Source of the DNA: an uncultured virus (IMG/VR IMGVR_UViG_3300027969_000053)
Lineage: Duplodnaviria; Heunggongvirae; Uroviricota; Caudoviricetes
DNA: 64,000 bases
IMG/VR virus record: IMGVR_UViG_3300027969_000053
Strand: one strand, 5' to 3'
The position numbers and the translations under genes are program-made. The notes under the pieces are model-generated. The model ran no database searches. It had not been told where the DNA came from and saw only the letters and a program-made list of their open reading frames with translations. Positions 5,747 to 62,318 of this stretch are shown in pieces; the stretch's first letter is position 1, and each line of letters begins with the position of its first letter.

Positions 5747-6408
5747 AACTATCTGAAAATACAATTTCAATTCTTAAAAACTTTGCGTCAATTAATCAAT
5801 CTATTCTTGTGAAGAGTGGATCAAAAATTCGCACTATGTCTGTAATAAAAACTATCTTGGCACAGGCAGAAGTAGAAGAAGAATTTCCAAAAGACTTTGC
5901 AATTTATGATTTAAATCAATTTCTAAACGGTCTTAGCCTTCACCAAGACCCAGAACTTGATTTTTCAAATGATAATTATCTTGTAATCCGAGAAGGGAAA
6001 CGTAAGGTAAAGTATTTCTTTGCTGATCCAGAAGTAATTGTTTCTGCGCCAGAAAAAGAAATTGAACTTCCTTCCAAAGATGTTTGTTTTCAACTTGATC
6101 ATTCCCATTTAGATAAATTGAAAAAAGCATCAGCAGTATATCAGTTGAATGATCTATCTGTAATTGGTGATGCTGGTGTAATTCGTTTGGTTGTAAGAGA
6201 TAAGAGAAACGATACTTCTAACGAGTATTCAATTACTGTGGGAGAAACTGATAAGGAATTTGTGTTTAATTTTAAAGTTGAAAATCTTAAAATTATTCCA
6301 ACAAATTATGATGTTGTGATTTCATCTAAACTCATTTCCCAATTTACAAATGAGAAGTATAATTTGAATTATTGGATTCCAATGGAACCCGATTCTGAAT
6401 TTAAATAA
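5743..6408 (+). CDS. gp45: DNA polymerase sliding clamp gp45
   Basis: MKLSENTISILKNFASINQS, FAIYDLNQFL. Confidence 0.95.
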   Translation: MKLSENTISILKNFASINQSILVKSGSKIRTMSVIKTILAQAEVEEEFPKDFAIYDLNQFLNGLSLHQDPELDFSNDNYLVIREGKRKVKYFFADPEVIVSAPEKEIELPSKDVCFQLDHSHLDKLKKASAVYQLNDLSVIGDAGVIRLVVRDKRNDTSNEYSITVGETDKEFVFNFKVENLKIIPTNYDVVISSKLISQFTNEKYNLNYWIPMEPDSEFK

Positions 6409-6425
6409 CTTTATTTTTTTATATT

Positions 6426-6956
6426 ATGAACATTTTTGCCAATGATCAGTGTCCGGTGCTTTCTGCCGTGGCACTTCCTGACAAATACTCAGTGAAAATG
6501 CCCTTGGAGACCTGTCAGATGATTTCTGTCATCTACTCCAAGTGGTACTATGATTGGGGAACCATTCCAAAGAAAGACGGCACCCCCTATAATACAGAGA
6601 AGGGTGCCTTCCGTAATCATCCTTGTACTCAATGGGCAGCAAAATCCCACGAGAACCTTGCTTGGTTGATTCGGCACGGATTTGCCCTTTGTAATGAGTA
6701 TCGGCATCGTTATGAAAAAGACCACGCTTGTATGAAAGGTCTTGAAGTTGCGGAGAATATCTTTGCTACTAAAAGTGGAAAAGAAATCGGTATCTACAAA
6801 AATGTGGTAGAATTCACAAGGGCAATGTCGGATGAGTTCAAGTGCGATACTTCAATTGATACATTTGAGGCATATAGAAGATATGTTGCCTCCAAACCCT
6901 GGGTGAAGGATAATTACCTTCGCATCCCCGAAAGACGACCGCAATGGGTGGTATAA
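6426..6956 (+). CDS. pyrimidine-dimer DNA glycosylase (DenV)-family protein
   Basis: MNIF..., DK..VKMPLETCQM, NHPCTQWA, EYRHRY motifs; visibly higher GC than its neighbours. Confidence 0.7.
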   Translation: MNIFANDQCPVLSAVALPDKYSVKMPLETCQMISVIYSKWYYDWGTIPKKDGTPYNTEKGAFRNHPCTQWAAKSHENLAWLIRHGFALCNEYRHRYEKDHACMKGLEVAENIFATKSGKEIGIYKNVVEFTRAMSDEFKCDTSIDTFEAYRRYVASKPWVKDNYLRIPERRPQWVV

Positions 6957-7048
6957 ATAATGATGCCTGGTTTGTTCGCACTTTTCGGGTGGGGGAGTAG
7001 AAATGCTCTCCCTTATAAATAGTATTGCGAACAAACAACAGAGCAGAA
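6952..7048 (+). ncRNA. candidate small structured RNA cassette with two late promoters, copy 1
   Basis: TATAAATA(6952-6959); GCCTG/CGGGT stem with loop GTTTGTTCGCA; GGGAG/CTCCC hairpin; TATAAATA(7014-7021); TGCGAACAAAC complementary to the loop. Confidence 0.6.
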
Positions 7049-7618
7049 ATGTATTACTACACTTACGCATATTTGCGTGAAGATAAAACTCCTTATTATA
7101 TTGGTAAGGGTAAAGGTAATAGAATTAACTCTAAACAAAGAAGTATAAAACCCCCCAAAGATAAAAGTAGAATAATATACCTCAAACAAAATCTAACTGA
7201 AGCAGAGGCATTTAGACACGAAATCTATATGATTGCTGTGTTCGGTAGAAAGGATTTAGGAACTGGTATTCTTCATAATAGAACTGATGGTGGTGATGGT
7301 GCTTCTGGTACTGTAAGAAGTGTGGAAGTTAAGAAAAAGCAAAGTGAAAGGATGAGTGGAGAAAACAATCCTCACTATGGTAAAAGAGGTAAAGAGGGAC
7401 CTCATTATGGTAAAAAACATACGCAAGAAACAAAAGATAGAATAAGAAAATCTCTACAAGGTAATGTAATTTCCAAAGAAACTAGAATAAAGATTAGTGA
7501 AAAAAATAAACTAAATCAACTTGGAGAAAACAATTCCTTTTATGGGAGAAAACATACAGAAGAAACTAAAAGAAAAATGAGTGAGGCAGCAAAACGAAGA
7601 AAAGAAAAAGGTTCTTGA
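7049..7618 (+). CDS. GIY-YIG homing endonuclease with NUMOD3 repeats
   Basis: YTYAY...YYIGKG.GNR; GENNPHYGK and GRKHTEETKRKMSE repeats; ATG at 7049 downstream of the late promoter. Confidence 0.88.
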   Translation: MYYYTYAYLREDKTPYYIGKGKGNRINSKQRSIKPPKDKSRIIYLKQNLTEAEAFRHEIYMIAVFGRKDLGTGILHNRTDGGDGASGTVRSVEVKKKQSERMSGENNPHYGKRGKEGPHYGKKHTQETKDRIRKSLQGNVISKETRIKISEKNKLNQLGENNSFYGRKHTEETKRKMSEAAKRRKEKGS

Positions 7619-7670
7619 CTTTTGTTGATTGTCGTGCTAAACTAAACACTAAACCTTACTGGATTTAATT

Positions 7671-8108
7671 ATGACTACGATTAAAACTTATGCGATTAAT
7701 GAACTCACCAGAATTGGAATGTATAATTCTGGGGAAGAAATGAATGATGAAATGTGTGAACATATTCTCAAAATAGTGGATGTATTTGACGAAGAGGGGC
7801 ACTCTGGATTTTCGGCAGAATATGCGATTGGTATTCTTCAAAAACTTCTAAGATGGGAACCACTTTCGCCCTTGACTGGTGATGATGATGAGTGGAAGAA
7901 TTTGGAGAATGAAGGATTTCAAAATAAGAGATGCTCTCGTGTCTTCAAGGATGAAAAAGGTGGACAAGCATATGATATTCGTGGCAAAGTCTTCGTAAAT
8001 CCTGATGGTGCTGCTTTTACTAGTCGTGACAGTCGGGTGTATATTGACTTTCCGTATGTTCCTAAAACTGAATATGTAAATGTAGAACACGAAACTACTG
8101 AAGACTGA
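7671..8108 (+). CDS. hypothetical protein
   Basis: 145-aa ORF downstream of a TTGACT-17-TAAACT promoter-like site; GHSGFSA and PLSPLTG motifs. Confidence 0.7.
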   Translation: MTTIKTYAINELTRIGMYNSGEEMNDEMCEHILKIVDVFDEEGHSGFSAEYAIGILQKLLRWEPLSPLTGDDDEWKNLENEGFQNKRCSRVFKDEKGGQAYDIRGKVFVNPDGAAFTSRDSRVYIDFPYVPKTEYVNVEHETTED

Positions 8109-15367: not shown

Positions 15368-15399
15368 TATAAATAAGTGTGGTTACTAACCATACACAA

Positions 15400-15957
15400 A
15401 TGTTTATAGATACGCACCACATAATACCAAGATCTGAAGGTGGAACTGATGATCCAAAAAATCTTGTTAAACTTCCAAGAAGATTACATCAAGAAGTTCA
15501 TCATCGTAGGTGGTTAGTTGGTGGATCTATTAATGATTTGTATGCTTTCCAAATATTAGGCGGAAATTTATCAGACGATGAATTGAAAAAAATTTATGAA
15601 GATCAAGTTTATAGATGTAAGAGGGATCAAACTAAATTGACTGAATCTAGAATAAATTCTGATAAATGGAAACAATCACATCAAAATGATGAATATAAAC
15701 AAAAGAAAAGAGAACAGAGTATTTTATTAAATAAACTTGGAAAAATTAATTCTAAAGAATCATCAATGCTTATAAGTGAAAAGAAAAAATCGGTGAAAAA
15801 TTACAATTCAAAATTAATTTCAGTTTATGGTAAAATATGGGAGGATGCTTCTAAATGTGTAAGAAGTGGTGGTTCTAATGGATTAAGTTTAAGACAATTG
15901 AGATACCGAGCGAATGAAATTAATTATCCCGATATATTTTATGTGGAGCAAATTTAG
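15400..15957 (+). CDS. free-standing HNH endonuclease
   Basis: HHIIPRSEGGTDDPKNLVKL..RLHQEVH; late promoter TATAAATA at 15368-15375. Confidence 0.85.
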   Translation: MFIDTHHIIPRSEGGTDDPKNLVKLPRRLHQEVHHRRWLVGGSINDLYAFQILGGNLSDDELKKIYEDQVYRCKRDQTKLTESRINSDKWKQSHQNDEYKQKKREQSILLNKLGKINSKESSMLISEKKKSVKNYNSKLISVYGKIWEDASKCVRSGGSNGLSLRQLRYRANEINYPDIFYVEQI

Positions 15958-15959
15958 TT

Positions 15960-16520
15960 ATGGTAATTGATTTAAATTATTTTGTTCAAGTTCATGAAAA
16001 TGCACTGGAAGAAAATGTTTGTGATTTCTTAATTTCATTATTTGATCAAGTTCCAGATAAACACGAGAGAATAGAAAACGAAAGAAAACCAAACTTCACT
16101 CAATTCAATCTTACTGAAAACTGTAAGATCACAGACGAAGTAAATACTGTTCACAATCATTTAATTAAAAAAACTTTTGATTATCGTAATGAATATTATG
16201 ATATGATTGATAAGAGAGTTTTTCCGGAAGAACACGCATTTGAACAATTTCGCATTAAGAGGTACAATAATGATGGCAATGACGAATTTGACACTCACGT
16301 AGATGTTATAGATCACGCAACATCAAGAAGATATTTGGCATTCTTTTGGTATTTGAATGATGTAGAACAGGGAGGAGAAACTAAATTTGCTGATATGATT
16401 ATACAACCAAAGAAAGGGAGTCTTCTTGTATTCCCTCCTCTTTGGATGTTTCCTCACGCAGGATTGCAACCAATAAGCAATCCAAAATATATTTTACACA
16501 CGTATTTGCACTATAAGTAA
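15960..16520 (+). CDS. 2OG-Fe(II) oxygenase
   Basis: HVD, YLNDVEQGGET, FPP.W.FPHAG, distal K. Confidence 0.9.
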   Translation: MVIDLNYFVQVHENALEENVCDFLISLFDQVPDKHERIENERKPNFTQFNLTENCKITDEVNTVHNHLIKKTFDYRNEYYDMIDKRVFPEEHAFEQFRIKRYNNDGNDEFDTHVDVIDHATSRRYLAFFWYLNDVEQGGETKFADMIIQPKKGSLLVFPPLWMFPHAGLQPISNPKYILHTYLHYK

Positions 16521-17152
16521 TGGAAAAAGTCGAAACTACTATTTTAAGAAATTTACTTTTTAATAATGATTATTGTAGAAAAGTATTACCATTTATTAAA
16601 AATGAATATTTTGAAAACCTTCACGAGAAGGTAGTTTTTGAAGAGATTTGTAAGTTTATTGTTGCTTATGATGGTCTTGCGACAAAAGAAGTTCTTTTAA
16701 TTGAAACTGAAAAAAGAACTGATATTACAGAAGATACTTATAAAACAATTTGTGAATATGTTTCTAATTTAGATAATACTCCTGCTGATACGAATTGGGT
16801 TACTGATACTACAGAAAAATGGTGCCGTGATAGAGCAATCTATCTTGCACTTATGGAAAGCATTAAAATTGCTGACGGACAAGATGATAAGAAGAATAGA
16901 GATGCAATTCCAACTATTCTTCAAGAAGCACTTGCTATTTCTTTTGATGACCATATTGGCCACGATTATCTAAACGATTATGAGGACAGATTTAATTCTT
17001 ATCACAGAAAAGAAGATAAAATTTCTTTTGATTTGGAATATTTTAACAAAATTACCAAAGGTGGTATTCCCAATAAAACACTCAATATTGCTTTAGCTGG
17101 TTGCGTTCATCCAGAAACCAGAGTTAAAATCAGATTTAGGAAGATTTCTTGA
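16520..17152 (+). CDS. gp41: replicative helicase gp41 N-terminal fragment fused to a 16-aa split-intein N part
   Basis: gp41 sequence up to NIALAG, then CVHPETRVKIRFRKIS and stop. Confidence 0.93.
   Translation: MEKVETTILRNLLFNNDYCRKVLPFIKNEYFENLHEKVVFEEICKFIVAYDGLATKEVLLIETEKRTDITEDTYKTICEYVSNLDNTPADTNWVTDTTEKWCRDRAIYLALMESIKIADGQDDKKNRDAIPTILQEALAISFDDHIGHDYLNDYEDRFNSYHRKEDKISFDLEYFNKITKGGIPNKTLNIALAGCVHPETRVKIRFRKIS
17102..17149 (+). mobile_element. atypically split intein, IntN (16 aa)
   Basis: Starts with Cys1 immediately after LAG of the Walker A loop; block A-like CVHPETRV. Confidence 0.88.
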
Positions 17153-17804
17153 TTTTGGAGTTTGGTGCTGGTTCTCCAGTTCCAAACTTCCAACCTTCAT
17201 TTAGTTTTATATCAACTTCTTCTGGTGATACTCTTTTCCATCCCTTTGTTCCCGGTAAATGCATTACCTTTTTGCCTTTATGTGCCTTTCCCCCTAATGA
17301 TGCTCGTGTTTTTCTTCCTTCATTAGATGCCCAATAATTGAATTCTGTGGATGCTCTTTGTTTTCCTCCAATTGATGCTCTTTCCTTTCTGCCTTCTTCT
17401 GTACTCCAATAATAGAAATTTTTAGTATTATTGATTAGATATTCTTGTTTTTGTATTTCTATTCCTTTTAGTCTCCAATCTTTTCTTTCTTCTACTGGGA
17501 TTGAGAAGAACCCAATTTGATTATCTCTACAAAATTCTCCTATTATTTTTCTGTGTTGGGGTGTTATATTTGCCCCCAACATTTTCATAGACCTTAAATC
17601 ATTTGGATTTTTATAAATTTTCCAAAGTAAATAATGTGCTATGATATGTTCTCTTACACTTAAATAAGTGAGATTTTCTTCACTATTATCTCCCCCCATA
17701 TGTTTTGGAGTAATATGGTGTTCGTGTATCCCAGAATATTTTTTATAATTGTCTTTTCTTGACCTATTGCTTTCGCATAGATTATAATAGATTTGACTAA
17801 ACAT
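17136..17804 (-). CDS. HNH endonuclease inserted antisense between the gp41 halves
   Basis: HEHHITPKHMGGDNSEENLTYLSVREHIIAH; minus-strand TATAAATA at 17833-17826. Confidence 0.88.
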   Translation of the reverse strand: MFSQIYYNLCESNRSRKDNYKKYSGIHEHHITPKHMGGDNSEENLTYLSVREHIIAHYLLWKIYKNPNDLRSMKMLGANITPQHRKIIGEFCRDNQIGFFSIPVEERKDWRLKGIEIQKQEYLINNTKNFYYWSTEEGRKERASIGGKQRASTEFNYWASNEGRKTRASLGGKAHKGKKVMHLPGTKGWKRVSPEEVDIKLNEGWKFGTGEPAPNSKIKKSS

Positions 17805-17837
17805 TTCCCCTGTCCCTGCTACTACTATTTATACAAA

Positions 17838-18215
17838 ATGTGGATTGAAAAAGAAACATCAATTGCTGAAATCAAAACATTACTTGATAATGGATATGAA
17901 GTGGAGGTCGATTCTCCCGATGGATATGTTCCTGTTAATTTTTTTATTAATAAAGGAATGTACGAAGAATATGAATTGCACTTGTATGATACTACTACTA
18001 AAGTAAAATGTAACGAAAGTCATTTATTTGAAACTAATCAGGGGTGGATTTCTGCTAAATCATTAGAGTATTCTAATTCGTATTGGGAGTTTATTACTAA
18101 AGACGGACTTAGAATTGGTAAGGTTATTAAGACCAATAATCAAATACCTATTGTAGATATTAATGTAAATCATCCAAATCATAGGTATTATACTAATGGG
18201 GTTTCCTCCCATAAT
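17838..18215 (+). mobile_element. atypically split intein, IntC (126 aa)
   Basis: Block B-like CNESH, block F IVDINV, terminal SHN, +1 Thr. Confidence 0.88.
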
Positions 18216-19010
18216 ACTGGTGTCGGAAAATCTTTGTTTATGTGTCATTTTGCTGCATCAGTTCTTCTTCAAGGAAAAAATGTTTTATACATTACACTTG
18301 AAATGGCAGAGGAAAAGATTGCTGAAAGAATTGACGCAAATCTTCTAAACATTAATATTAAAGACATTGAAACATTACCTAAAATGATGTTTGACTCAAA
18401 AATAAATAGTATTGCGAAGAAGACTCAAGGAACTTTAATTATTAAAGAGTATCCAACTGCTTCCGCACACGCAGGACATTTCAGAGCACTTCTAAATGAA
18501 CTCTCTCTTAAGAAATCATTCAGACCTGATATTATTTTTATTGACTACCTTAATATTTGTGGTTCCTCAAGATATAAGAGTAATTTTTCAGTTAATTCTT
18601 ATTCATATATTAAAGCAATTGCAGAAGAACTTCGTGGTCTTGCAGTTGAAGCAAATGTTCCAATTGTTTCCGCTACTCAAACTACTCGTAGTGGTTTTTC
18701 TAGCTCTGATCCTGATCTTACTGATACTTCTGAATCCTTTGGTCTCCCTGCTACTGCTGATCTTATGTTTGCCCTTATTAGCACAGAAGAGTTGGAACAA
18801 CTCGGGCAGATTATGGTAAAACAATTGAAGAATAGATACAATGACCCAACAATGAATAAAAGATTTGTAGTTGGTATTGACCGTGCGAAGATGAGATTAT
18901 TTGATGTAGAGCAAAGTGCTCAAACCGATATACTTGACTCTGGACAAGAAGAAGAGTATACTTATGAAGAAGATAAACCCAAAAAACAATTCTCTGGATT
19001 TAAATTTTAA
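17838..19010 (+). CDS. gp41: split-intein C part fused to the gp41 helicase C-terminal fragment
   Basis: MWIEKE...YYTNGVSSHN, then TGVGKSLFMCH, ITLEM, IFIDYL, SATQTTR. Confidence 0.93.
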   Translation: MWIEKETSIAEIKTLLDNGYEVEVDSPDGYVPVNFFINKGMYEEYELHLYDTTTKVKCNESHLFETNQGWISAKSLEYSNSYWEFITKDGLRIGKVIKTNNQIPIVDINVNHPNHRYYTNGVSSHNTGVGKSLFMCHFAASVLLQGKNVLYITLEMAEEKIAERIDANLLNINIKDIETLPKMMFDSKINSIAKKTQGTLIIKEYPTASAHAGHFRALLNELSLKKSFRPDIIFIDYLNICGSSRYKSNFSVNSYSYIKAIAEELRGLAVEANVPIVSATQTTRSGFSSSDPDLTDTSESFGLPATADLMFALISTEELEQLGQIMVKQLKNRYNDPTMNKRFVVGIDRAKMRLFDVEQSAQTDILDSGQEEEYTYEEDKPKKQFSGFKF

Positions 19011-24294: not shown

Positions 24295-25311
24295 ATGTCT
24301 CAAGATTTGAATGATTTTTTTAAATTATTAGCAGAAGATAAGAAACAAAAAAAAGAAGAATTTGATAATCTTGTAGGAGATTTGGGATTAAATTCTCTTT
24401 TTGGTGAATTTGCTGCAATTAAAAAAGAACAAAAAGAAAAAAAGATAGAAGAAAAGAAAAAAACAGAATCTATTATTGGTGAACTTACTTTAGATTCTGT
24501 TTTTAAAGAAGTTGTTAATTTAAAAAAAGAAACAAAAAAGAAAAAAGTACAAGAACAAAAAACAATCCAAGCATTTGAAACTTGGTTATATTCTGATTCT
24601 GTATTGGAACAAGATGAAATAATCAATGAAGTTATTGAAGAATCTTTGGAAGAAGTTCTTGAGGTTCTTGAAGATAACAAAGAAGAATTGGAAGAATTTA
24701 ATAAAATTGAAGAACCAACATTAATTGAAAAATCATTAGGTCTTCTTGCCGAACCAAGTGATGTCAAGCAACAAAATGACCCATTAACTCCATTAGATCA
24801 AAAGTTCGCAACACTTGATGATTTACAAAAACATTACAGTACTTTCCTTTCTCGTATTCAACAACAACTTTCCACATTAGGTGGAGGGGGAGAAACCAGA
24901 TTAAGATACTTGGATGATATTGTAGGTATTGCAACGAATTCTGGTGCTTATGATGGAAAGTATTTGCAATGGAACTCTACTACTAATAAAGCAGAATTTA
25001 CTGACCCAAGTGATTCAGAATCTACAACAATAGTTTCAATTACTGGAATTACCACTTACTATCAGGCAACCGATAATGATGATTATATTGGTGTCAATGC
25101 TAGTGTTCCTGTAACAATAGTTCTTCCAACATCTCCAAATACTGGAAAAAAAATCATCGTCAAAGATGAGGGAAATAATATATCTACATATAGTATTAGA
25201 GTTCAATCAGGTATTGGTAAAAGTGTAGAAAACGATACTTCTGTGATTATGTCTATCAATCATCAATCACTAACATATTTTTTTAATGGAAACAATTGGT
25301 TTATTATCTAA
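24295..25311 (+). CDS. putative structural protein (coiled coil plus beta-rich C-terminal domain)
   Basis: LSTLGGGGE..LRYLDD; YIGVNASVPVTIVLP...IIVKDE. Confidence 0.6.
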   Translation: MSQDLNDFFKLLAEDKKQKKEEFDNLVGDLGLNSLFGEFAAIKKEQKEKKIEEKKKTESIIGELTLDSVFKEVVNLKKETKKKKVQEQKTIQAFETWLYSDSVLEQDEIINEVIEESLEEVLEVLEDNKEELEEFNKIEEPTLIEKSLGLLAEPSDVKQQNDPLTPLDQKFATLDDLQKHYSTFLSRIQQQLSTLGGGGETRLRYLDDIVGIATNSGAYDGKYLQWNSTTNKAEFTDPSDSESTTIVSITGITTYYQATDNDDYIGVNASVPVTIVLPTSPNTGKKIIVKDEGNNISTYSIRVQSGIGKSVENDTSVIMSINHQSLTYFFNGNNWFII

Positions 25312-25413
25312 CTAAATATCAATACCTGTGTGGTTCGCATCTATCAGGTGGAAAGGGTGCTTTCGGGCACCTTTTCTTGTATAAATAGTATTGCGAACCA
25401 TAACAGAATAAAA
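25312..25413 (+). ncRNA. candidate small structured RNA cassette with two late promoters, copy 2
   Basis: CTAAATA(25312-25318); ACCTG/CAGGT stem with loop TGTGGTTCGCA; GGTGC-TTTCGG-GCACC hairpin plus T-run; TATAAATA(25380-25387); TGCGAACCATA. Confidence 0.6.
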
Positions 25414-25980
25414 ATGATTTATTACACTTACGCATATTTGCGGGTAGATAGAACACCTTATTACATAGGAAAAGGAAAAGGTAATAGGGCATATAGAAGA
25501 AGATATAAAGGTGAAGTAAGAGCACCAAAGGATAAGTCAAGAATAATTTTCCTAAAACAAAACTTAACCGAAGAAGAAGCATTTAAGCACGAAATCTATA
25601 TGATTGCCGTGTTCGGCAGGATAGATTTAGGAACTGGTATTCTTCACAATAGAACTGATGGTGGTGAAGGTGCTTCTGGTGCTATAAGAAGTGAAGAAAC
25701 AAAATTAAAAATGAGAACTCCTAAAAAAACAACAATAAATATGAAAAAACCAAAAAGTGAGGAGCATAAGAAAAAAATAGGATTGCGTAGAAAAGGAAAA
25801 AAACACACGGAAGAAGCAAGAAAAAAAATGAGTGATGCTCAGGTTAGGAGAATTATCACTGATGAATTTAGAGAAAAAATTCAAAAAAGTAGAATGGGAA
25901 GAAAACATTCCGAAGAAACAAAACAAAAAATGAGAGAAAAAGCATTATTAAGAGAAGAACTAAAACGGAACAATAAATAA
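25414..25980 (+). CDS. GIY-YIG homing endonuclease with NUMOD3 repeats, paralog of 7049..7618
   Basis: [52 protein letters not shown] and GRKHSEE. Confidence 0.88.
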
Positions 25981-25998
25981 GGTATCAATATAATTGTT

Positions 25999-40783: not shown

Positions 40784-41212
40784 ATGTTTAATTTTAATTT
40801 TGGAAATAAAAAACCAGATATTAAACAATATGCAATCATAGGAATTATCTTAAGTTCTGTGATTGCAACTCTTACACAATGTACTGGAATTCAAGAAACA
40901 TCCTTATGGGATGTATTTGATGAGGTGCAACGTAAGTTTTTCCCTCAAACAATCTTGAATGATTTCATCATCAAAGATCCCGAAAAATTGGATCGTAGGG
41001 TGAAGAGAGATGTTGATTTGGCAATTGCTGAGTATGAAAGATTGACAGGAGATGATGGAAAGATTAGGATGCCTAAACCACGATATTCAGAGAAACCACC
41101 AGACGGGTCTTATGTCCAATCAGTTTTGGGTGGTGAAATGAGATTGTGTGCTCCTTGGGTAAACGATTGCCCCTTTACAGACCAGAATAATGCGGATGTA
41201 ACTCAGCGGTAG
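40784..41212 (+). CDS. hypothetical membrane-anchored protein
   Basis: ATAAATA upstream; N-terminal hydrophobic helix; stop lies inside tRNA-Gly. Confidence 0.65.
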   Translation: MFNFNFGNKKPDIKQYAIIGIILSSVIATLTQCTGIQETSLWDVFDEVQRKFFPQTILNDFIIKDPEKLDRRVKRDVDLAIAEYERLTGDDGKIRMPKPRYSEKPPDGSYVQSVLGGEMRLCAPWVNDCPFTDQNNADVTQR

Positions 41213-41263
41213 AGTTCCTGCTTGCCAAGTAGATTGTCGTCGGTTCGAATCCGATCATCCGCT
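41192..41263 (+). tRNA. tRNA-Gly(GCC)
   Basis: GCGGATG/CATCCGC acceptor, loop TTGCCAA, GGTTCGAATCC T-arm, discriminator T, CCA not encoded. Confidence 0.9.
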
Positions 41264-43770: not shown

Positions 43771-43842
43771 GGTTCTGTCGCCTATTGGTTAAGGCCGACA
43801 CCTTATAAGTGTCTGAACGGAGTTCAATTCTCTGCAGAACCA
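43771..43842 (+). tRNA. tRNA-Ile(UAU)
   Basis: GGTTCTG/CAGAACC acceptor; GCCT/AGGC D-stem; GACAC-CTTATAA-GTGTC anticodon arm; CGGAG-TTCAATT-CTCTG T-arm. Confidence 0.85.
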
Positions 43843-62164: not shown

Positions 62165-62199
62165 AGTCAGGAAACGAAGACAAATCTTTACGTTTCTTA

Positions 62200-62318
62200 A
62201 CCTTCTGTAACCGAGATCATCAGAAGTAAAGCGTCTCTCATATCCGTACTGGAGGGTGGTACGGAAATAACTGTAACATTCAGTTCCCCCTGAATTCTTA
62301 TTTACCCTTTAACGAAAA
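62200..62318 (+). ncRNA. structured psbA leader, probably the PhotoRC-II-type motif
   Basis: CTTCTG/CAGAAG, GAGA/TCTC, TCCGTAC-TGGAGGGTG-GTACGGA, ATTCAG/CTGAAT; family match is from recall, not a search. Confidence 0.6.

Follow-up and report, generated by a model that had tools for sequence, protein, structure and literature searches.

Two Related Modules in Front of Homing Endonuclease Genes

The stretch of DNA analysed here (64,000 nucleotides [nt], referred to as the window) is the IMG/VR record IMGVR_UViG_3300027969_000053 of an uncultured virus. It belongs to a T4-like cyanomyovirus, with recombination and replication genes around the site under study, and its blastn matches to Synechococcus and Prochlorococcus phages reach 60–80% identity at most. 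Two homing endonuclease genes of the GIY-YIG/NUMOD3 type are found on its plus strand, gene 1 (7049–7618, 189 amino acids, ATG at 7049) and gene 2 (25414–25981, 188 amino acids), each preceded by a region of similar layout (6952–7051 and 25311–25416). The region in front of gene 1 is best explained, and we think probably so, as one copy of a portable 5′ control module of about 100 nt that belongs to the selfish nuclease genes of T4-like cyanophages. Both enzymes match NUMOD3 (2.8e-20 for gene 1 and 8.9e-10 for gene 2) and the family phrog_314, "homing endonuclease" (5.6e-18 and 1.1e-17, respectively), while the GIY-YIG motif of gene 1 (YYYTYAY...YYIGKG) was recognized by eye only, Pfam PF01541 being unreported at E ≤ 0.01.

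Copy 1 starts with a box of the late-promoter type, P1 (TATAAATA, 6952–6959), which overlaps the TAA stop codon (6954–6956) of a denV-like open reading frame (ORF, 6426–6956). Hairpin 1 follows (6965–6990), in which, in the fold of a short RNA, stem A, GCCTG(G), pairs with A′, (C)CGGGT, and a variable segment X is left in the loop (GCCTG at 6965–6969, X = GTTTGTTCGCA at 6970–6980, CGGGT at 6986–6990). Next come hairpin 2, terminator-like and 9 bp long (6991–7012, GGGGGAGTA and TGCTCTCCC around a GAAA loop), and a canonical late promoter, P2 (TATAAATA, 7014–7021). The leader of the nuclease gene (7026–7045) contains TGCGAACAAAC (7026–7036), the exact complement of 6970–6980, and a further segment A″, CAG.AGC (7039–7045), which ends 3 nt before the AUG. 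A preliminary description of this locus had listed two late promoters, a stem-loop, a hairpin, a leader complement and the ATG at 7049, and all of them are where it had placed them. Its 11-nt exact complement between loop and leader also stands, but the pairing is really longer, about 19 pairs in the minimum-energy fold of 6940–7075, where a 5′ arm shared with hairpin 1 (6964–6982) pairs with the leader as 3′ arm and P2 is placed in the loop of this long-range helix. The terminator-like hairpin claimed before P2 is present as well, but in copy 1 it lacks a U-run and was unflagged by a consensus terminator scan. The string TATAAATA has 17 matches in the window where 8.0 would be expected, a number reached in none of 100 shuffles. 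A leader peptide from a small ORF at ATG 6961 was considered and dropped, that ATG being missing in relatives.

The same order of elements is repeated on the plus strand before the paralogous gene 2, as had been noted, except that the first box is ACTAAATA (25311–25318) and not TATAAATA. Hairpin 1 of copy 2 (25324–25349) has the stem ACCTG/CAGGT with X = TGTGGTTCGCA in the loop (5′ arm, 25326–25339), and is followed by a terminator-like hairpin (25350–25379, core GGTGCT/UUCG/GGCACC, then TTTTCTTG), P2 (TATAAATA, 25380–25387) and a leader with the 3′ arm GCGAACCAT.ACAG (25392–25406). The two arms have changed together, as previously proposed, with TGTGGTTCGCA and TGCGAACCATA compensated, one G:U pair included. 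A covariance model of the module recognizes exactly two copies in the window (98.7 and 89.6 bits), and the nearest record, a 40.5-kb fragment (G001), carries one module. Another string of similar appearance, AATAAATAgtattgcgaag at 18401, was discarded as a chance occurrence inside the gp41-like coding frame.

The preliminary description had not recognized the element as a described family, in agreement with the Rfam search, which gave no match at gathering score in this region of the window and none at E ≤ 10 in 6900–7100. Elsewhere in the window, Rfam identifies a PhotoRC-II RNA (62188–62278, 60.4 bits) and tRNA genes at 41192–41263 and 43771–43842.

Conservation and Covariation of the Pairing Arms

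Relatives were collected by a protein-guided scan of viral contigs that gave 391 candidate stretches, 298 of them encoding relatives, of which the best 80 were kept, making up 79 loci. For the complement test L078 (a match without the N-terminus) was excluded, leaving 78 loci plus the two window copies; among these, L016, L030, and L074 have no P2 box. In 74 of the 77 sequences with a P2 box (the two window copies and 75 loci) leader and upstream region share an ungapped complement of 9–15 nt, a degree of pairing far beyond chance; in one of the loci (L075) the complement is the best match off the usual register. The exceptions have interrupted arms (L014 and L024) or are truncated (L018). According to the covariance model, 67 of the 79 loci have a full module immediately ahead of the nuclease ORF. 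Seven loci (L021, L022, L025–L028, and L048) possess a simpler form that lacks the P1 box. Here it is the terminator-like hairpin that holds X in its loop, and the 3′ arm runs right up to the AUG.

Covariation between loop and target, which the preliminary description had named as a check, is present among the homologs. In an alignment of 49 distinct rows fitted to the model, all 10 pairs of the X helix have changed on both sides (96% paired), as have 5 of the 6 pairs of the basal A/A″ helix and 11 of the 12 pairs of the inner hairpin (hairpin 2). No shuffle out of 500 reached the same covariation score, and sliding the partner lowered pairing from 91% to 43–55%. The local stem A/A′, assessed with a second model of the short form, behaves similarly (6 pairs, 93% paired, both partners changed in 5 of the 6, a score equalled in none of 500 shuffles). 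Since both A/A″ and A/A′ covary, stem A covaries with two alternative partners. Each of these two alignments was fitted to its own model, which biases it toward that structure, and the alignment-free tests agree with them; a plain MAFFT alignment also has compensatory changes in 10 of 11 predicted pairs. Cognate duplexes of arm and leader average −21 kcal/mol, compared to −11 kcal/mol for non-cognate ones (50 distinct sequences, five of them with a wrongly chosen ATG).

Among the cells of the long-range helix there are 31 G:U against 4 A:C, and 91 against 12 in the inner hairpin, so that the pairing is that of the sense-strand RNA and not of a DNA palindrome. This bears on the idea that the inverted repeat acts as DNA, either as an autorepression operator or as a recombination site. 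The repeat does flank a promoter, and autorepression of I-TevI at its own late promoter is described in the available text of PMC2988022. Nevertheless, a protein-binding site would be conserved in sequence, whereas the arms are hypervariable yet compensated, and together with the strand-specific G:U excess this makes a DNA operator unlikely.

Two Alternative Folds

The region 6940–7075 of copy 1 folds with −45.3 kcal/mol (z = −5.3, none of 200 shuffles as good) and copy 2 with −39.1 kcal/mol (z = −5.3), and in both of them the long-range helix encloses hairpin 2 and P2. The pattern is general among the 44 distinct members folded. In all of them the minimum-energy fold has 13–24 pairs that connect the 5′ region with the leader and cover the ribosome-binding region, the last pair being at most 7 nt from the AUG; in nine the pairing extends into the AUG. 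This long-range fold is more stable than the two-hairpin form by a median of 14.75 kcal/mol. A late promoter, as judged by sequence, stands between the two arms and precedes the 3′ one by 5 nt in both window copies and in 45 of 48 distinct modules.

An RNA that ends before P2 adopts instead two adjacent hairpins, A/A′ with X in the loop and then the GC-rich one. The predicted RNA from P1 to P2 (48–71 nt, median 55.5) starts hairpin 1 at nt 0–1 and also forms hairpin 2 in 44 of 44 members, always with X in the loop of hairpin 1, so that the loop presents a complement to the translation-initiation region of its target, as small RNAs do. A U-run follows hairpin 2 in copy 2 and in most relatives. 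In copy 2 the terminator-like hairpin went unflagged because the scan extends the stem into the T-run.

A Probable Mask Over the Nuclease Leader

The most likely function of the module, in our opinion, is that of a cis-acting mask of the type known from T4. The upstream anti-leader (stem A plus X) is complementary to roughly the initial 20 nt of the leader of the nuclease mRNA, and the approximately 45–70 nt between the arms accommodate the terminator-like hairpin and P2, the canonical late promoter. Any RNA with both arms, produced by read-through from upstream or by a P1 transcript that passes the hairpin, would form the long-range helix of 13–24 bp. With the ribosome-landing region covered to within a few nt of the AUG, the nuclease would remain untranslated. 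Transcripts started at P2 would lack the 5′ arm and leave the leader free. The expected outcome is that the nuclease, which is potentially harmful, is made at a low level and only late, shielded from the genomic surroundings of the cassette. The preliminary description had set aside a simple occluding hairpin, yet this is the best-supported core of the module, and it is what the full form and the form without P1 have in common. The fold of the RNA with both arms encloses P2, as in T4 I-TevI and segB and in Aeh1 mobE. The anatomy of the sequence, the folds, the covariation, the sense-strand character of the pairing and the mobility of the cassette are observed, while the transcript start sites, the termination and the effect on translation are inferred.

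Several observations weigh against such a mask. Contigs from RNA runs do not cover 6951–7032 (five runs had small word shares, 0.05–0.13, and four were compared, as contigs only, which are uninformative on a discrete RNA, on transcript ends and on strand). There is no strong Shine-Dalgarno sequence in the leader, only AGAG-like strings, and 35 of the 44 folds leave the AUG unpaired. Five loci with a divergent upstream neighbour offer no obvious read-through that would include the 5′ arm and still keep the module intact. Lastly, a pure cis mask needs neither an invariant P1 at a fixed distance of 5 nt, nor a covarying local stem A/A′, nor a terminator between the arms, the latter flagged by the scan in neither window copy.

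The last three features, taken together, predict a small late RNA (48–71 nt, median 55.5). The upstream half would then be a gene of its own, a tandem antisense brake encoded on the same strand: an RNA of about 50–60 nt with two hairpins, started in copy 1 near 6965 and ended near 7013 at hairpin 2, that represses translation of the nuclease in trans. Loop X would kiss the 5′ end of the nuclease mRNA made from P2 and then zip to the ribosome-landing region. Such an RNA could be an addition to the cis mask rather than a replacement for it. We regard this trans-acting RNA as possible but doubtful. It is in line with the two-hairpin fold of all members at a suitable length, with the U-run found in most of them and with a stem A/A′ that covaries for no purpose of a cis-only mask. 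Conversely, no RNA of the predicted size has been sighted in the RNA-run contigs, which are uninformative in this respect; copy 1 has no U-run and the terminator scan passed over both copies, and seven loci make do with a form without P1.

The P1 Box as a Possible Second Promoter

All 48 distinct aligned modules have N[A/C]TAAATA at the P1 position and, after a spacer of 5 nt, a purine (G in 33, A in 15), a count that is biased in that the model which gathered these rows includes P1. Hairpin 1 begins with this purine, and the spacing from P2 to its arm is identical. As a putative promoter, P1 fits NATAAATA, given as the cyanomyovirus late-promoter consensus in PMC2984593; NCTAAATA is also found 22–28 nt upstream of large ORFs in the window (19616, 36572, and 63453). 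The first base of P1 is, however, unselected (T in 12, A in 12, G in 10 and C in 5, nine more modules having C at position 2), unlike that of P2, which is TATAAATA in 45 of the 48. P1 may therefore be a weak promoter or none.

If it is none, the box would supply the stop codon and a single-stranded, AU-rich stretch that may be a processing site, hairpins 1 and 2 would serve as terminator and 3′-end stabilizer of the upstream mRNA, and only the cis mask would matter. In about 21 of about 44 distinct loci, both window copies included, the upstream ORF ends in the box or within a few nt of it, which provides an alternative reason for part of its conservation, and formation of the mask needs the ribosome to stop before the 5′ arm. 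The unselected first base and the existence of a P1-less form point in the same direction. Even so, a stop codon alone would not call for six invariant bases (TAAATA, 48 of 48), a spacer of constant length (5 nt) and a purine, and the box is kept where no ORF of the same strand ends nearby (e.g., L007, L009, L010, L053, and L054). We find this explanation unlikely, more so than the trans-acting RNA.

The full module is also preserved in five distinct loci whose upstream gene is divergent, on the minus strand. The gap measures 50–52 nt in all five, and they probably represent one shared genomic context. Conservation in this position would suit an upstream half with its own promoter, although a mobile cassette may retain all its parts whatever its present context.

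Distribution Across Nuclease Families and Orphan Half Modules

A pattern scan blind to the encoded protein (P1 core, CCTG, and CAGG) matched more than 122 stretches. Among the 80 that were examined, 50 match a half-module model and 46 the full model at ≥67.9 bits. The 46 downstream ORFs, grouped by blastp and by eye (with Pfam and PHROGs run on 10 representatives only), comprise 10 relatives of the window enzymes, 13 classic GIY-YIG nucleases, 8 members of a "PRIYxYKITFEEVPYYYYG" family, 4 of a "KKYFYVYYSYEE" family, 9 of one HNH type, 1 of another HNH type, and 1 TnpB-like ORF. The last one is found behind a module in a 243-kb viral contig (L150:400-837) and matches HTH_OrfB_IS605 (2.6e-18) and the transposase family phrog_506. 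In the cultured freshwater phage S-SRM01 we counted six modules of at least five sequence types, each before a nuclease gene, the cognate duplex being the strongest for all six.

The presence of unrelated nuclease families behind the module indicates a device of gene expression rather than the partner of one enzyme. It had been suggested, as the more speculative option, that the RNA could be a guide or bind the GIY-YIG nuclease, a role that becomes unlikely when GIY-YIG subfamilies, HNH types and a TnpB-like ORF all share the same module. Taken with the DNA operator discussed above, this reading is largely refuted by the covariation, the unrelated nucleases and the G:U asymmetry, and we give it a very low probability.

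There are also orphan half modules (L059:2980-3086 on the minus strand, with its copies, L122:400-478, and L126:400-484), which consist of a P1 box, hairpin 1 and a terminator-like hairpin, the complementary leader and the nuclease gene being absent. Probably they are scars of nuclease loss. That half modules exist without leader or nuclease would favour a trans-acting RNA, but they have no target in their own, fragmentary records: when the complement of the orphan loop was sought in these (24% and 12% complete), the loop itself was the only match, and matches with 1–2 mismatches were no commoner than those of a reversed control pattern. No orphan half module was found in S-SRM01, which also speaks against the small RNA.

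Mobility and Genomic Context of the Cassette

Contigs of two RNA-library runs, one each from X4 and X5, join position 6935 straight to 7651, which defines an inserted cassette at 6936–7650 on the plus strand that comprises the module, the endonuclease gene and a promoter-like string at the 3′ end. In another X5 contig 6904 is joined to 7651 with 31 diverged letters in between. X4 and X5 are both freshwater runs from 2017 that may come from one campaign, and carry-over of DNA is possible. The site is hence polymorphic for the presence of the cassette, as expected for homing. The proposal that nuclease and RNA module form one mobile unit is borne out both by these contigs without 6936–7650 and by the many nuclease genes that the module accompanies. 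Among public phage records, blastn of 6400–7700 matched only the denV-like part, with none of 276 reaching ≥80% cover. In run X1, all that can be seen is that contigs of related nuclease genes run on upstream through a TATAAATA.

The insertion displaced the end of the denV-like (Pyr_excise) gene. In the cassette-less form this gene ends in KPYWI*, whose displaced remnant lies at 7651–7668 (plus strand), while the cassette supplies its own version of the end, RPQWVV* (6936–6956). The same denV-like remnant is seen in two relatives (L003 and L004). We considered whether promoter repeats bound the cassette and dropped the idea, the nuclease 3′ flanks lacking a repeated late-promoter box.

The promoter-like string at the 3′ end is of the sigma-70 type (TTGACT-17-TAAACT, 7615–7643, plus strand), a consensus match only (9 of 12 positions, with TG before the second hexamer). 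It overlaps the stop codon of the endonuclease gene and faces a Tad3-like gene (7671–8108; Tad3, 1.2e-41), so the cassette may give early expression to an anti-defence gene of this Thoeris inhibitor family. The 3′ flanks of five relatives (L006, L014, L040, L060, and L075) contain a common type of string, ACTGGCAC...TTGA...TATAAT, which may supply the gene downstream with an early promoter at or after the end of the cassette.

Other endonuclease genes of the window are arranged differently. An HNH gene (15368–15957; PF01844, 2.2e-05) directly after a uvsX-like gene has TATAAATA at 15368 and a small local leader hairpin, the module being absent. A gp41-like helicase gene (16520–19010) is split into an N part (16520–17152) and a C part (17793–19010), the latter matching DnaB_C only from residue 142, after an intein-like stretch that ends in SHNT. 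Between them lies an HNH-like ORF (17136–17804) on the strand opposite to the gp41 parts, its motif recognized by eye, with no Pfam match. This corresponds to the "fractured gene" arrangement as described in the text available of Dassa et al. (2009). The HNH-like gene has a plain T4-style hairpin over its start, AUGUUUCUUUU pairing with GGGGAAAUGU, and TATAAATA is inside it (17833–17826, minus strand).

Comparison With Known Systems

Homing endonucleases have to be expressed enough to spread and too little to harm their own phage. Type I toxin-antitoxin pairs such as IstR-1/tisB rely on a base-pairing small RNA that masks the ribosome entry site of the toxin mRNA. If the segment from P1 to the terminator is a real late RNA of about 55 nt that brakes the nuclease mRNA in trans as its cognate anti-leader, which we hold as a tentative view only, the cassettes would be self-contained units of a toxin-like gene plus an antisense RNA, and the orphan half modules could blunt the cognate nuclease of a co-infecting phage. 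Like IstR-1 and the phage antisense RNA OOP of lambda (the latter listed in PMC12197685), the predicted RNA would be short, with its own promoter and terminator, a pairing segment presented in a stem-loop and the leader of a harmful protein as target. It would differ from both in being encoded in tandem, on the same strand and upstream of its target. According to a review from 2010, T4 had until then no trans-acting regulatory RNA with a functional characterization (PMC3014915), and the modules would be a candidate first class of such small RNAs in T4-like phages. CfrI of cyanophage S-PM2 is another cyanomyovirus RNA tied to a homing endonuclease gene, but, from the passages available, its layout differs (about 225 nt, on the opposite strand, spanning the endonuclease gene and psbA; PMC2984593, PMC12197685) and no similarity is implied.

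Another precedent comes from metagenomes. In the accessible text of Dassa et al. (2009; PMC2677866), cyanophage-like endonucleases of the GIY-YIG and other types, found at "fractured gene" loci in ocean metagenomes, have hairpins in 15 of 16 5′ untranslated regions, 10 of them with TATAAATA. The upstream promoter box, the inner terminator, the alternative local hairpin and covariation statistics are unmentioned there, and our comparison is with those hairpins as described. Our literature search gave no description of the unit of P1, hairpin and terminator or of its small RNA, though the figures and supplement of that paper may show more, and the terms "late promoter," "hairpin," "small RNA," and "transcriptom" are absent from the S-SRM01 genome paper.

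The nearest likeness is with the masks of T4 and its relatives. As set out in the accessible portions of PMC2988022 and PMC3014915, the genes for I-TevI, for I-TevII, and for I-TevIII, segB, mobE of Aeromonas phage Aeh1, and T4 e and soc sequester the ribosome-binding site in a helix formed on longer transcripts only, and have a late promoter at a position from which the RNA made late in infection misses the 5′ strand. The module resembles these masks, and that of T4 gene 49, in its helix over the initiation region, in the TATAAATA late promoter that would yield late transcripts without the 5′ strand and in its link to homing endonuclease genes, whose expression would be multi-layered and late-only. 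It departs from them, as far as those texts go, in that its arms are 45–70 nt apart and enclose a separate terminator-like hairpin, its 5′ arm is in the loop of a covarying hairpin of its own, a second late-promoter box stands at a fixed upstream distance, the helix usually ends a few nt short of the AUG, and it is one homologous portable sequence family across many nuclease genes.

The masking logic is thus already known from T4, in the accounts consulted, and a hairpin was noted in 2009; what is new is a defined, homologous and portable module with two covarying alternative pairings, a putative second promoter box, an internal terminator-like hairpin and a spread across nuclease families. 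Its arms have been re-coded many times and are still complementary, so that nature provides here a collection of translation locks that are programmable by sequence and for the most part orthogonal. In T4 the hairpins are tailored gene by gene; here the same logic takes the form of a single portable RNA module.

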